From IMG/VR virus record IMGVR_UViG_3300046171_000218: DNA of 64,000 bases. One strand, given 5' to 3'. The DNA is from an uncultured virus (IMG/VR IMGVR_UViG_3300046171_000218) (Duplodnaviria; Heunggongvirae; Uroviricota; Caudoviricetes). Of this stretch, positions 11,873 through 52,900 are shown piece by piece. The notes below the pieces were generated by a model. The model searched no databases. It was not told where the DNA came from and saw only the letters and a program-made list of their open reading frames with translations. Position numbers and translations under genes: made by a program. The number at the start of each line of letters is the position of its first letter. Positions within the stretch are counted from its first letter, which is position 1.

Positions 11873-11919
11873 TAAAAAGGGGGGCGAGTGCCCCCATTAT
11901 AACATATTAAGATTGCAAG

Positions 11920-12078
11920 TCAATTAAATACTTTCCATTTTGGTATGCCTAGAGATTTTAGAAAAACCCACTTAGCATATGTAACGCCACGATATGTCAG
12001 AAGTCTGAAGACTTTATCTGGATCATGTACCTCTGGATTGTACTCTGGAAGATCATATTCTACTTTGATCTTCAGCAT
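11920..12078 (-). CDS. Small protein with LTYRGV motif (DUF4278-like, 52 aa)
   Basis: Manual translation MLKIKVEYDLPEYNPEVHDPDKVFRLLTYRGVTYAKW...; GAGGAGG RBS. Confidence 0.65.
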   Translation of the reverse strand: MLKIKVEYDLPEYNPEVHDPDKVFRLLTYRGVTYAKWVFLKSLGIPKWKVFN

Positions 12079-12089
12079 TTAATTCCTCC

Positions 12090-12185
12090 TCAAGAGTGTT
12101 GAAGAAGAACGATTTCACCATAAAGTAGAGCCATAGTTGCAACACATGCAAAGGTAATTACGCCTGTGATTTGTAGTGCTTCCAT
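12090..12185 (-). CDS. 31-aa single-TM peptide
   Basis: MEALQITGVITFACVATMALLYGEIVLLQHS; GAGG RBS. Confidence 0.55.
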   Translation of the reverse strand: MEALQITGVITFACVATMALLYGEIVLLQHS

Positions 12186-12192
12186 AAGTGCC

Positions 12193-12357
12193 TCACTTAG
12201 TATAAGTGCGTCCACGATAGCAGAATGTGCCATGTGGTACTTTGCCTGACTTACGAACTTCACATTCTACACCACGATATTTGGTGAGAGTGATTTGTGA
12301 ATCATGAAGAGCAGCCTGCTTGTTGATCTGCTCTTTAATAAGTTGAAGGGTGTTCAT
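12193..12357 (-). CDS. DUF4278-like small protein with two YRG motifs (54 aa), directly downstream of the glutamine riboswitches
   Basis: MNTLQLIKEQINKQAALHDSQITLTKYRGVECE...FCYRGRTYTK; AGGAG RBS. Confidence 0.75.
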   Translation of the reverse strand: MNTLQLIKEQINKQAALHDSQITLTKYRGVECEVRKSGKVPHGTFCYRGRTYTK

Positions 12358-12415
12358 TTGTTTTCTCCTGAAGTGGGTGATTTTGCTCCTTTAACCCCGT
12401 AGGGTGATCCGAGTT

Positions 12416-12460
12416 CCCGTTCCTTCAGTCGTTTGCGTCCGTCAAAGACGGATGAACGAT
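12416..12460 (-). ncRNA. glnA-type glutamine riboswitch aptamer 2
   Basis: ATCGTTCA-TCCGTC-TTT-GACGGA-CGCAA-ACGACT-GAAG-GAACG: P1 CGTTC/GAACG, P2 hairpin, GAAG E-loop strand. Confidence 0.8.
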
Positions 12461-12696
12461 CCGTTCCGCGACTTACTTGCGTCTCATGTGTATGCTCCCT
12501 TACATTCCCCCGCGACTTTCGATCTAAGGTAACCTATAAGATTATACTTAGATTGGCGATCAAGATTGGAATCCATTTGAATTTCAACTGATCGTTGTAG
12601 AAACCTTTCACAAGACATATGCCAATCGTAAGGATTGGCGTCATTATGATGGGCAAGGGTTAATGCCAGTAAGATACTGAGCATGAGATGAACGAC
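12461..12696 (-). ncRNA. glnA-type glutamine riboswitch aptamer 1 with a 193-nt ORF-containing P2 loop
   Basis: 5' half GTCGTTCA-TCTCATG (12696-12682); 3' half CATGAGA-CGCAAGTAAGTCG-CG-GAACGG (12488-12461). Confidence 0.7.
12484..12684 (-). CDS. 66-aa protein with signal-peptide-like N-terminus, nested in riboswitch aptamer 1
   Basis: MLSILLALTLAHH... hydrophobic leader, two Cys; open from ATG 12684 to TGA 12484. Confidence 0.7.
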   Translation of the reverse strand: MLSILLALTLAHHNDANPYDWHMSCERFLQRSVEIQMDSNLDRQSKYNLIGYLRSKVAGECKGAYT

Positions 12697-12702
12697 AAGT
12701 GT

Positions 12703-12731
12703 ATACTACACTATCAATTCTATTTAGTCAA
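12703..12731 (-). promoter_or_regulatory. Sigma70-like promoter (TTGACT-17-TAGTAT, extended TG) with overlapping late-type CTAAATA
   Basis: -35 at 12731-12726, -10 at 12708-12703; predicted start falls at the 5' end of aptamer 1. Confidence 0.65.
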
Positions 12732-12742
12732 ATGTGTTGGTA

Positions 12743-12985
12743 TCAACACGAACATTTATAGTTGATCTTGTTAAGATAATTCAGTGTCTCTTTGAGACTT
12801 CCACGATGCTTCACTCCGATAGCAATCTGTGGGTACTCCGCACCTTCTCCAAACTCTGCTCTGAATTGTGCTTCAGTAAAGTCTACATCTAAAAGATATT
12901 CATGGAAATCATTATGAATACTTTTCAAAAGCATAGCAGCTCTTTCACATTCTTGATTTCCGTTACTGTAGATCCATGCTTGCAT
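12743..12985 (-). CDS. Glutaredoxin-fold protein lacking CxxC
   Basis: MQAWIYSNGNQECERA...FG..AEYPQIAIG.KHRG; start at 12985 avoids overlap. Confidence 0.65.
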   Translation of the reverse strand: MQAWIYSNGNQECERAAMLLKSIHNDFHEYLLDVDFTEAQFRAEFGEGAEYPQIAIGVKHRGSLKETLNYLNKINYKCSC

Positions 12986-20067: not shown

Positions 20068-20170
20068 TATGAGTGCGGGGAACACTAGGTAAAATATTCC
20101 AACTCTACCCTCCAGAGTTGGTATTAGAGGCGTTTTTATACTCCCTAGAGGCCTCGGTTTGCAGAGAGTG
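20068..20170 (-). ncRNA. Structured psbA 5' leader (PhotoRC-II-like motif)
   Basis: ACCGAGGCCTCTAGGGAG...CGCCTC...CCAACTCTGGAGGGTAGAGTTGG hairpins directly upstream of phage psbA. Confidence 0.65.
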
Positions 20171-20177
20171 GTACAAC

Positions 20178-20243
20178 TTTACAGAAGTTTACATTCTGCG
20201 TCGTTGATGTATTTATACTATACCAGATCTAGGGTGCTGTCAA
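20178..20243 (-). promoter_or_regulatory. psbA promoter: TTGACA-17-TAGTAT, overlapping late TATAAATA, plus HLR1-like direct repeat
   Basis: -35 at 20243-20238, -10 at 20220-20215, TATAAATA at 20217-20210, TTTACAGA-AG-TTTACATT at 20178-20195 (+ strand). Confidence 0.65.
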
Positions 20244-50819: not shown

Positions 50820-50892
50820 TAGGGGTTGCGAGGATCGAACTCGCCTTAGGCAAATTATGAGTTTGCTGCATTCACCAGATTGCTAAACCCCT
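50820..50892 (-). tRNA. tRNA-CAT (Met or lysidine-type Ile2)
   Basis: Cloverleaf, anticodon arm GCAAA-CTCATAA-TTTGC, T-loop GTTCGATC. Confidence 0.85.
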
Positions 50893-50967
50893 TGGTAGGA
50901 CTGCTGAGAATTGAACTCAGTTCACACCGTTATAAGCAGTGGGCCTTAACCAATAGGCGACAGTCCC
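50893..50967 (-). tRNA. tRNA-Ile(TAT), CCA encoded
   Basis: Anticodon arm CACTG-CTTATAA-CGGTG, T-loop GTTCAATT, ends ACCA. Confidence 0.88.
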
Positions 50968-50972
50968 TCAAT

Positions 50973-51143
50973 TCAAGAACCTTCTTCGTGTTCTGTATAC
51001 ATTTTTAGTAGTTCGTCGTCCTCTGGTATAAAGACAGCTGCTGTACCATCTTCTTTGACAATACCAAGTCTCTCTCCATTCTCAACTCGTGCGAAGAGTT
51101 CGTCGAAATTTTCTTCCCATTCTTTTAAAGTAAAGATTTCCAT
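50973..51143 (-). CDS. Small protein, possibly Phd/YefM-like (56 aa)
   Basis: Manual translation MEIFTLKEWEENFDELFARVENGERLGIVKEDGTAAVFIP. Confidence 0.6.
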   Translation of the reverse strand: MEIFTLKEWEENFDELFARVENGERLGIVKEDGTAAVFIPEDDELLKMYTEHEEGS

Positions 51144-51825
51144 TTGTCAACAAGAGCGAAAAGTCCATGAGAGTAGAATCCTAGGACTATCGATCCCAGA
51201 ATCGCACTTATAATTGTAGCAGTTTTATTGTGTTTGTCAATTGCCTTATCAATCATTTCTTGGCACTGTTTTTCCGTAACATAGTGCTCTGGTTTGATTT
51301 CATCCATTCTGTGACTCATCTTCGTCTAACTGGGACAATCTCTTCTCCCATGTTACTCCACCTTCCATTCCAACGCAAGGGTTTATACAGGTTTCATCAC
51401 CAAGATTATTACATACTAGTCCTGCAAGATCTAATTCATTTCCCAACTTACCGGTTCCACTCCAGTAATGTTGCCCGCCTATCCATGTAGCGCCGCATTT
51501 TGGGCATATCTTAGTATCAACTGACAAAGATGTTTGTTCATCAGACATTCTTCTTTTGCTCCTTGAATAATTGTTTTCTGTCTTTCACAAGTTGAGATCT
51601 AATTTTTCTCATCAAGAAGTATGATCTCAATTTAATAAAAGAATACCTGACATTAAGATCAATGTATGCTACAAGTCGCATAGTGGCATTATAACCACCT
51701 ATTAAAATTAATGCAACAAATATTAGAACAAGAAGATAAAAGAGAACCAATATTTTTATGCAGGTATAATTGTATATAGAAACAAGATGTTTTTTAAGAT
51801 GTGTAACATGTTGATACAAAGACAA
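51125..51825 (-). CDS. Three small hypothetical ORFs (51125-51319, 51300-51548 with CPKC, 51541-51825)
   Basis: Overlapping co-oriented ORFs within the tRNA region. Confidence 0.55.
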
Positions 51826-51899
51826 TCGGGATGATAGGATTTGAACCTACGGCCACTCGCTCCCAAAGCGAGTGCTCTACCAAACTGAGCTACATCCCG
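51826..51899 (-). tRNA. tRNA-Pro(TGG)
   Basis: CGGGATGTAGCTCAG...CTCGC-TTTGGGA-GCGAG...GTTCAAATC. Confidence 0.93.
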
Positions 51900-51987
51900 T
51901 GGAGGAAAGTGAGGGATTTGAACCCTCGGAGGTGTTACCCTCTCCAGTTTTCAAGACTGGTGCAATAAACCACTCTGCCAACTTTCC
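51900..51987 (-). tRNA. tRNA-Ser(TGA), CCA encoded
   Basis: CCAGT-CTTGAAA-ACTGG, long variable arm. Confidence 0.93.
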
Positions 51988-52159
51988 GTTCGTTATCGTT
52001 CCAGTGTCTTATGACTCCAGATACAATAAAAGCGTTAGTAACCATGTAGCTAACAAATATAATGGTGCGTATGCCAGCAACGTAATTATCGTAAGGAGCT
52101 GTTTTGTCGTCACTGAAACTTCCGATGGCATACTTCCAAACTTCCCAAACTTTTTTCAT
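51935..52159 (-). CDS. Membrane hypothetical protein reading into tRNA-Ser
   Basis: WKYAIGSFSDDKT..YDN...RHWN; stop lies inside the tRNA. Confidence 0.65.
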   Translation of the reverse strand: MKKVWEVWKYAIGSFSDDKTAPYDNYVAGIRTIIFVSYMVTNAFIVSGVIRHWNDNERKVGRVVYCTSLENWRG

Positions 52160-52404
52160 TTAATTTCAAAATCAAGTTTGCGAACTTTACGCTTTCTTCT
52201 CTTCTCTTGATCTGCAAGATCTTGATTAGAGAGAACATTATTTGATAACTTTTTCTTATCAGAATTGATCATAACAATTTTGCTAAGATCCTGAGCAGAA
52301 ACTTTATCACCTAACACAGTCATCATGTTAGGGCAACCACAGACTTGAGTTTTAGTATTACTACAAATTTCTGTGTTGCATTCTTTGCAACGTACAATAA
52401 TCAT
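52156..52404 (-). CDS. Zn-ribbon-like hypothetical protein
   Basis: RCKEC...CGCPN. Confidence 0.7.
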   Translation of the reverse strand: MIIVRCKECNTEICSNTKTQVCGCPNMMTVLGDKVSAQDLSKIVMINSDKKKLSNNVLSNQDLADQEKRRKRKVRKLDFEIK

Positions 52405-52428
52405 TTTTCATAACCCTCCTAATGGGAA

Positions 52429-52500
52429 TGCTTGATGACGGGATCGAACCGCCGACACCCAGAATGTAACTCTGGTGTTCTACCTCTGAACTAATCAAGC
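52429..52500 (-). tRNA. tRNA-Val(TAC)
   Basis: CCAGA-GTTACAT-TCTGG anticodon arm, GTTCGATC T-loop. Confidence 0.85.
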
Positions 52501-52504
52501 AAAG

Positions 52505-52576
52505 CTCCCCCACTTGGACTCGAACCAAGAACCGCTCGATTAACAGTCGAGAGCTCTACCATTGAGCTATAGAGGA
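52505..52576 (-). tRNA. tRNA-Asn(GTT)
   Basis: TCCTCTATAGCTCAATGG...CTCGA-CTGTTAA-TCGAG. Confidence 0.92.
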
Positions 52577-52734
52577 TTGTTTTTTTGTTCCTTCTTTAGT
52601 TTGAAATACAGTTTATGATACTTATCACACATTTTTCTGAGAACATCTCTGTCTTCGTCAAAACCAAGTTTCTTAGTGTGTTGATAAGAACCTTCTAACT
52701 CTGATATAAGTAGAAGAATTTCAACTGGTTTCAT
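52567..52734 (-). CDS. Small hypothetical protein (55 aa), stop inside tRNA-Asn
   Basis: Manual translation MKPVEILLLISELEGSYQHTKKLGFDED...; AGGA RBS. Confidence 0.6.
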   Translation of the reverse strand: MKPVEILLLISELEGSYQHTKKLGFDEDRDVLRKMCDKYHKLYFKLKKEQKNNPL

Positions 52735-52750
52735 GTTCCTAAAAAAGGAA

Positions 52751-52822
52751 AGCGGAGTATCGGAATCGAACCGACGACATCTAACTTGGAAGGATAGCGT
52801 TCTACCGCTGAACTAACTCCGC
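52751..52822 (-). tRNA. tRNA-Gly(TCC)
   Basis: GCGGAGTTAGTTCAGCGG...CTTCCAA loop...GTTCGATT. Confidence 0.92.
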
Positions 52823-52826
52823 GAGG

Positions 52827-52900
52827 CGTCTCAGGTAGGACTCGAACCTACGGCCGACTGCTTAGAAGGCAGTTGCTCTAATCCACTGAGCTACTGAGAC
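52827..52900 (-). tRNA. tRNA-Arg(TCT)
   Basis: ACTGC-CTTCTAA-GCAGT anticodon arm, GTTCGAGT. Confidence 0.92.

Follow-up and report, generated by a model that had tools for sequence, protein, structure and literature searches.

Riboswitch aptamers are usually compact and lie upstream of the gene that they belong to, and protein genes looped out of a structured RNA are known from group I and II introns, which can carry ORFs in peripheral loops (for example the T4 td intron). The closest described counterpart of the element analysed here is the glutamine-I aptamer (RF01739) of the Synechocystis gifB/IF17 leader, for which the available text describes a CGUUCA...CGC-AAGUA...GAAG-GAACG-G core, a three-way junction with an E-loop, a position upstream of a DUF4278 gene, a proposed release of the ribosome-binding site (RBS) and an NtcA-type promoter (PMC6212724); each of these has a likeness here. 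The glutamine-I pocket contains the pair C1:G59, G22 on G2:C58 and a long-range 23:60 pair (PMC6698751, available in part). Glutamine riboswitches are stated to 'occur in tandem' in the accessible part of PMC2864571, with 157 doublets and 4 triplets given in that of PMC9481103. In cyanophages they have been mentioned in passing (PMC9964418, PMC9602691, PMC9004378 and PMC5473149, each available in part), and a 2017 survey listed only two glutamine aptamers in phage genomes and concluded that riboswitch use is rare among phages (PMC5473149).

The present element lies on the minus strand of a 64 000-nucleotide stretch of viral DNA (the window). Judged from its genes the window is part of a T4-like cyanophage; the neighbours of the element are thyX, a thioredoxin-domain gene and members of cyanophage PHROG families, and the region is matched by 403 phage records, nearly all from Synechococcus phages or cyanophages. 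It differs from the gifB leader in that two cores are nested through one P3, the P2 loops hold genes and the element is phage-borne. As in the tandems, there are two glutamine cores in one leader; the tandems, however, are described as side-by-side pseudo-cooperative units, and the words 'nested' and 'interdigitated' are absent from the available text of PMC9481103, whereas covariation here places one core inside the other. The glutamine-II class (Downstream-peptide, RF01704) is similar in its pocket bases, its occurrence in marine picocyanobacteria and its small DUF4278-like ORFs downstream, but it is described as a pseudoknot without an E-loop and with the small ORF downstream of the aptamer (PMC6698751, in the part available), while here the ORF is inside. 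Membership of that class was considered and rejected (RF01704 scores 30.5 bits against a threshold of 33, with five non-standard P2 pairs, and the E-loop is present). The introns likewise loop a protein gene out of a structured core, sometimes overlapping core bases; they are self-splicing ribozymes with a mobility protein, whereas the present element has a metabolite sensor, small non-nuclease proteins and no sign of splicing. No account of a gene within a glutamine aptamer, or of a nested pair, was found in the literature covered, which is incomplete. By sequence comparison, the structure is widespread and its architecture is new within a known riboswitch class: the aptamer encloses whole genes, their start and stop codons are stem bases and a second aptamer sits inside P3.

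The features of the unit, from 5' to 3', are as follows.

12740..12753, minus strand: NtcA-type box with one mismatch (GTT-N8-TAC), just 5' of the -35 hexamer, from the sequence
12703..12731, minus strand: sigma-70-type promoter TTGACT-17-TAGTAT (9/12 match)
12700..12712, minus strand: inverted repeat around the -10 hexamer, with arms that change together across loci
12690..12694, minus strand: outer P1 5' strand CGUUC, pairing with 12422-12418 by covariation
12682..12688, minus strand: outer P2 5' strand UCUC-AUG, including the start codon
12484..12684, minus strand: nested gene, 66 aa (PHROG 6471, E 1e-34)
12482..12488, minus strand: outer P2 3' strand CA-UGA-GA, including the stop codon, which covaries with the bases before the ATG
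12469..12481, minus strand: outer J2/3 CGC, E-loop 5' strand AAGUA (12478-12474) and shared P3 5' strand AGUCG, from the RF01739 alignment of gene-free alleles
12454..12466, minus strand: inner permuted P1 hairpin GAACG-GAU-CGUUC (computed P=0.67)
12438..12452, minus strand: inner P2 (slot 2), a hairpin with a 3-nt loop, empty in the window
12417..12437, minus strand: inner J2/3, P3 3' strand CGACU, E-loop 3' strand GAAG (12426-12423), outer P1 3' strand GAACG and G60
12365..12373, minus strand: CUUCAG-GAG, anti-Shine-Dalgarno partner overlapping the Shine-Dalgarno (SD) sequence of the downstream gene, by covariation
12193..12357, minus strand: DUF4278/IF17-like gene, 54 aa (PHROG 545; Pfam PF14105, E 4e-4)
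12185-12090, minus strand: 31-aa ORF following the DUF4278-like gene, first part of the remainder of the unit (11880..12185)
12078-11920, minus strand: 52-aa YRG-motif ORF (PHROG 6192)
11895-11880, minus strand: terminator ending the unit

Two glutamine-I aptamers and their register

Comparison of homologous loci makes it very probable that the leader consists of two glutamine-I aptamers joined back to back via one P3, the inner one circularly permuted. The sequence-only reading had instead placed two independent aptamers side by side, with 12694-12690 and 12466-12462 as P1 of the first. All the motifs that it quoted are found on the minus strand where it put them (TCTCATG at 12688-12682, CATGAGA at 12488-12482, ATG at 12684, TGA at 12486-12484, CGTTC at 12694-12690, GAACG at 12466-12462, TTGACT at 12731-12726 and TAGTAT at 12708-12703), and its P1 complement exists, but the conserved pairing differs: both covariation and the Rfam alignments favour a nested pair sharing P3. 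In this register, 12466-12462 pairs with 12458-12454, and the first G of the intervening loop is the equivalent of the inner G60. The second aptamer is present with its 3-nt P2 loop, but its independence is not supported and most relatives have a gene at that position.

At the variable P1 position the nested register (first strand with last, middle with middle) holds in 204 of 204 distinct elements, whereas the side-by-side register, in which each aptamer would close its own P1, is broken in 77 of the 204 (74 from a variant-selected set and 3 of 130 unselected elements). The outer P1 pair is altered separately in eight elements. A search in which one middle strand was fixed returned 119 loci in 96 distinct contexts; in all 69 contexts having both strands the change is compensatory, CAACG being accompanied by CGTTG, and the 27 contexts lacking the partner strand were judged by eye to be 25 chance matches and two interrupted elements.

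In the nested register AGUA-AGUCG and CGACU-GAAG form a single E-loop and P3, completing a P1/P2/P3 three-way junction with compensatory changes. P3 reads AGUUG/CAACU in 5/232 cases, and some longer-P3 variants have C.A mismatches. At the base of P3 the outer core carries the E-loop (AGUA/GAA), which the inner core lacks, and GAAG is replaced by AAAG in 45/204 elements. Both cores of the window carry the pocket bases CG, CGC and CG-G. The G60 equivalent is G in 201/204 outer and 204/204 inner cores; the remaining pocket positions are required by the element parser and therefore give no independent count.

No glutamine riboswitch is recognised within the window at the Rfam gathering level; at a lower threshold RF01739 matches the 3' half only (12460-12414; 33.3 bits against a gathering threshold of 35). 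The natural alleles L123 and L146, in which both P2 loops are empty, score 45.0 and 41.7 bits, above gathering, and Infernal picks the nested register for them, treating the inner aptamer as an insert of 39-46 nt in P3. Three further double-empty alleles (L142, L162 and L163) give only single-aptamer matches under gathering, and the gene-filled alleles L007 and L453 have no Rfam match. The assignment to the glnA class and the presence of a gene within the P2 loop, both from the sequence-only reading, are supported. In two loci (L215 and L250) a second copy of the element's 3' end comes before a new CGTTCATCCC start, which may mark an additional aptamer unit.

Genes in the P2 loops and the start-stop stem

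Across relatives each aptamer P2 is, by alignment, a slot that holds either a few bases or a whole gene from a family of small proteins with two cysteines and a predicted helical hairpin; in the window the outer slot (slot 1) is filled and the inner slot (slot 2) is empty. Of 332 loci, 326 have the linker and 269 are complete, giving 204 distinct elements. Their slot 1/slot 2 states are empty/gene in 114, gene/gene in 73, gene/empty in 11 and empty/empty in six. Loci were also gathered by RNA motif rather than by protein; these proportions reflect the locus collection, as does the count of 187/204 elements with slot 2 filled. Loop lengths are bimodal (12-47 or 199-224 nt in slot 1 and 12-27 or 143-204 nt in slot 2), and every distinct long loop contains an ORF starting near the stem (86/86 in slot 1 and 197/197 in slot 2). 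Every filled slot has its start codon within the stem or beside it, most often at +4, and its stop codon in the stem or the E-loop. On a tree of slot 2, slot 1 changes state at least 13 times.

The slot-2 gene has 46-66 codons in most relatives, belongs to PHROG 504, PHROG 13397 or neither, shares the two-cysteine pattern of the slot-1 proteins and has a dN/dS of 0.356 in its commonest length class. In 240 of 268 loci it reads through P2 and ends W-D-A-N-D with its stop codon inside the E-loop strand. A GGAG formed in part from inner pocket bases precedes the slot-2 AUG by 10 nt; in the unselected set it is present in 106/113 filled against 4/17 empty slots, counts that ignore relatedness. In the CAACG variant set it occurs in 22 of 74 elements with slot 2 filled and is absent from 52.

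The sequence-only reading had reported a perfect 7-bp inverted repeat enclosing the ATG and TGA of the 66-aa ORF and had suggested testing homologous loci for covariation of this start/stop stem. The repeat is confirmed, and the stem does covary: the stop codon changes with the bases before the ATG, the combinations being TC/TGA (47), TT/TAA (12), CA/TAG (8) and others (2) among 69 sequences. In the CA/TAG sequences one altered pair is preserved, while the other position is an A.A mismatch. In 65 aligned sequences the 7-bp stem is 97.6% paired, with two-sided changes at two positions (in 8 and 12 sequences). The paired fraction of the 16-pair structure was reached by 0/500 shuffles, and sliding the partners by 1-3 columns left only 26-45% of the whole structure paired. 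A tree of the ORF interior gives about eight changes for each stem side and nine joint ones, with only four independent pairs on supported branches (p 0.125, not significant). Every one of the 160 homologous loci compared, comprising the best 80 of 354 from viral contigs and the best 80 of 471 from metagenomes (two sets with a probable overlap in origin), retains the flanks: CGTT[CT]A precedes the ATG by 4-8 nt, and CGCAAGTAAG follows the stop codon at a distance of 2-6 nt.

The stem was computed to be closed in the window with or without the aptamer core (P=0.98). P2 also stays closed after shuffling of the loop, so its closure needs no special loop sequence; the natural loops fold 9-14 kcal/mol more stably.

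By comparative measures the nested gene is real, as had been claimed: its dN/dS is 0.148 (78 sequences, with 2010 of 3003 pairs within the divergence limits). Cys25 and Cys61 are both invariant in an alignment of 20 slot-1 proteins, and across 58 diverse family members Cys25 is invariant and Cys61 nearly so. In the predicted structure (pLDDT 79.7) a hydrophobic N-terminal helix is accompanied by a helical hairpin with the cysteines on either side of it; a disulfide and export are inferred. No Pfam family and no convincing NCBIfam family was found for the protein, a Foldseek search of the PDB gave no match at E 0.001 (best VIA-align Z 4.0) and its Atlas matches are viral clusters without names, under 0.9; these missing matches do not amount to a new fold. 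Direct comparison of the slot-1 and slot-2 profiles is weak (probability 12.8, E 0.002), and the case for their common ancestry consists of the aligned cysteines, a joint profile and the viral fold matches.

The gene had also been described as lacking an SD sequence, and none of 75 slot-1 genes has one. Synonymous sites in codons 2-16 (12681-12637) are constrained (mean 0.09 versus 0.27, p=0.0006), and this stretch, perhaps an initiation element, contains a GGCA/UGCC hairpin at 12667-12652 with no compensatory changes.

In five T4-like isolates all eight family matches fall in slots. Syn9 gp196 (the name under which a homologue of the nested protein is annotated), gp197 and gp198 are the slot-1, slot-2 and downstream genes, and P-HM2 has both slots filled. 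Phage records matching a slot-2 protein number 320, many of them redundant and with E values up to 1, and those matching the nested protein 50. Family members also occur outside any aptamer (L465 and L466, with an ordinary SD sequence), which indicates that the protein has a life of its own; as slots are often empty too, neither aptamer nor family needs the other. Among genome contigs the linker pattern has 12 matches, nine showing the element and three being chance or cut off; their phage-type promoters suggest phage DNA in bins or infected cells.

Several side observations concern the distribution of these genes. An unannotated homologue of the nested protein lies between hli and psbA in the T7-like cyanophages (podoviruses) P-GSP1 (L562:334-603) and MedDCM-OCT-S05-C849 (L563), where it overlaps hli in another frame, has no aptamer and possibly has a signal-like N-terminus. 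In Synechococcus phage Sf-CH5 (PV340852.1, L452:1085-1675) the inner P1 loop is occupied by a gene annotated as a homing endonuclease, which lies between the slot genes; L100, L367 and L389 have similar interruptions starting at this point. In Sf-CH5, as in several other phage records, the slot-1 gene is unannotated, and the slot-2 gene is present but unannotated in P-SSM2 (AY939844.2, L479, locus about 604-753).

Promoter region and downstream gene

The NtcA-type consensus is GTA-N8-TAC. An exact copy is absent from the window, which has the one-mismatch box; among 194 distinct upstream regions of homologous loci, 95 contain one (against 3.3 in shuffles), in most cases where the window has its box, and this supports the link to host nitrogen status that had been suggested. 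In a minority of loci (L010, L018, L026, L075, L212 and L561) the box covers the start region, ending 5-8 nt short of the aptamer, rather than lying 5' of the -35 hexamer, and may there serve repression rather than activation. The sigma-70-type promoter is present where the sequence-only reading had placed it, but the match alone is weak (9/12, with five such sites found against 4.6 expected); a -35-like hexamer occurs in 164/194 homologous upstream regions, a count made without a control. Overlapping this promoter is CTAAATA (12727-12721), which resembles the T4-type late promoter consensus, and a loose late-like motif is found in 187/194 regions, again without a control. The inverted repeat around the -10 hexamer may act as an operator or, in a late transcript, as a 5' hairpin; at least four pairs are folded by 194/194 upstream regions but by most shuffles too.

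The transcript is predicted to start at about 12696, which would give the nested gene a 12-nt leader. One RNA-library contig ends at 12696 (one run, a weak hint); the RNA data are contigs from four runs, from which start, strand and level cannot be read. The joints in run X12 have short sides and probably come from other organisms, so they do not speak for excision.

The element stands as a leader with an expression platform before the DUF4278/IF17-like gene. That this gene is DUF4278-like, as had been stated, is supported by PF14105 at 21.2 bits, under the 25.3 cut-off, and its likeness to IF17 is, in sequence terms, the DUF4278 resemblance only. IF17 is an inactivating factor of glutamine synthetase (GS), which it binds and inhibits. 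Short IF17-like proteins are described as being without the C-terminal part needed for GS binding (PMC6212724, in the available sections).

The anti-SD strand CUGAAG (12428-12423) is part of the E-loop 3' strand, whereas for gifB the available text proposes C68 and the following bases (PMC6212724). At the variable pair of the anti-SD helix the 204 elements have G:C (80), G:U (63), A:U (43) and A:C (0), with 18 unparsed or mis-parsed, and a CUAAAG strand always faces CUUUAG (43 cases). On the tree this covariation comes down to five independent pairs (p 0.25, not significant); the tree-based covariations of stem and anti-SD helix, resting on 4-5 independent pairs, are all in the expected direction or neutral. 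In the window the helix has a computed P=0.6 without ligand, and that fold also has the downstream start region paired with the 5' GUUCA. As a P1 strand, GUUCA(U) (12693-12689) is complementary to the downstream start AUGAAC (12351-12355), which is found in 147/204 elements, with AUGAAU in 16; this may be a second OFF helix, or merely the protein start M-N.

When the aptamer was forced, the downstream AUG was computed to be more open in 37 of 44 sampled elements, and SD opening was mixed (22 rise and 8 fall, n=44). Adopting the aptamer state carries a computed cost of 2-14 kcal/mol, the model having no terms for E-loop and ligand energies. In the absence of glutamine, CUGAAG would pair with the SD region of the DUF4278-like gene and turn it off; glutamine would close outer P1 and P3 and free the SD sequence, as proposed for cyanobacterial gifB. 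That glutamine acts as an ON signal for the downstream gene is probable, and this logic accords with the one shown for gifB, for which Klahn 2018 postulated RBS release (PMC6212724, available in part).

Possible control of the nested gene and competing explanations

Taken at the level of sequence, comparison establishes the nested fold, the gene, the start-stop stem and the anti-SD helix. The explanation that we favour, with a probability of roughly 0.55, is that the element forms the 5' unit of a cyanophage operon that responds to nitrogen, and that translation of a nested gene and sensing by nested aptamers compete in it. With a 12-nt leader and no SD sequence, the nested gene would require ribosomes to load co-transcriptionally, ahead of synthesis of the P2 3' strand, or at times when P2 is kept open by traffic. 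A ribosome at the nested stop codon could then unzip P2 and the adjacent pocket, and each mRNA would either translate the nested gene or be able to sense glutamine. That the competition is functional is somewhat favoured; it is argued for by the ends of most slot-2 genes in the E-loop and by a GGAG built from pocket bases. Against this explanation, a slot-2 ribosome stopping in the anti-SD strand could open the downstream gene without glutamine.

Ligand-induced folding had been put forward as what hides the nested AUG, a proposal that the computed folds do not support. The AUG is computed to be paired whether or not the aptamer forms, so that hiding it would not take glutamine, and AUG access changed upon aptamer formation in 0/25 slot-1 and 3/28 slot-2 genes sampled. 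Glutamine might at most lock a stem that is already closed. The ON switch is better supported than the still hypothetical control of the nested gene by glutamine. We regard only tentatively, and as the lesser possibility, a two-output switch in which glutamine would turn the nested genes off (in slot 2 by capture of the SD G residues in the binding pocket) and the IF17-like gene on, and nested translation would reset the sensor. In such a switch, base pairing between start and stop codons might also enable a ribosome that terminates on the SD-less gene to begin on it anew. Were this true, glutamine sensing would be near-standard in T4-like cyanophages and overlooked by covariance searches. The 320 and 50 phage-record matches, together with gene-filled alleles that have no Rfam match, indicate that nitrogen sensing by phages infecting ocean cyanobacteria may be common, and the locus suggests that other riboswitches may be masked by genes in their loops.

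Rather unlikely, though the best placed of the alternatives, is that the P2 loops are a safe harbour: the double aptamer would control the downstream gene only, its loops tolerating insertions, and a small gene would merely borrow the nitrogen-controlled promoter, with translation and sensing on different molecules and no selected cross-talk. All four filled/empty combinations occur, the slot-1 state is labile, P2 closes without ligand, homologues exist outside aptamers and Sf-CH5 has a homing endonuclease gene in its inner P1 loop. A passenger would, however, more simply be placed inside the loop with its own SD sequence, whereas the genes start in or next to the stem, stop in the stem or E-loop rather than free in the loop, and GGAG tracks slot-2 occupancy. 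Much less credible is the arrangement of two side-by-side aptamers whose glutamine-stabilised folding sequesters the nested AUG. The complement on which it relies could form transiently during transcription, and its constrained ensemble lies only 1.3 kcal/mol above the nested one. Side-by-side pairing nevertheless has P=0.03 when the window is folded without constraint, leaves both aptamers without P3 or E-loop and is contradicted by the register counts; an AUG computed as paired without ligand also speaks against this arrangement. At least as improbable is a leader peptide that acts only in cis, reporting translation capacity to the riboswitch, while the protein would have no role of its own. 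The missing SD sequence, the absence of a known domain or fold, the constrained codons 2-16 and the several divergent subfamilies that fill slot 2 would suit it; it is at odds with purifying selection on the amino acids, the conserved cysteines, and the homologues that have an ordinary SD sequence or lie between hli and psbA in two podoviruses. The A-N-D at the slot-2 end, whose codons are set by the aptamer sequence, resembles the start of a tmRNA tag. That the element is a permuted two-piece tmRNA or other noncoding RNA is scarcely conceivable, even though a two-piece tmRNA call containing a glnA-like motif is reported for a marine phage (PMC9004378, in the available text), as ARAGORN found no tmRNA in the window or in 60/60 loci and Rfam gave no tmRNA match.

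Elsewhere in the window, a PhotoRC-II RNA motif is present at 20086-20181 (69.5 bits), and eight tRNA genes, one with the anticodon TAT, are clustered at 50820-52900.
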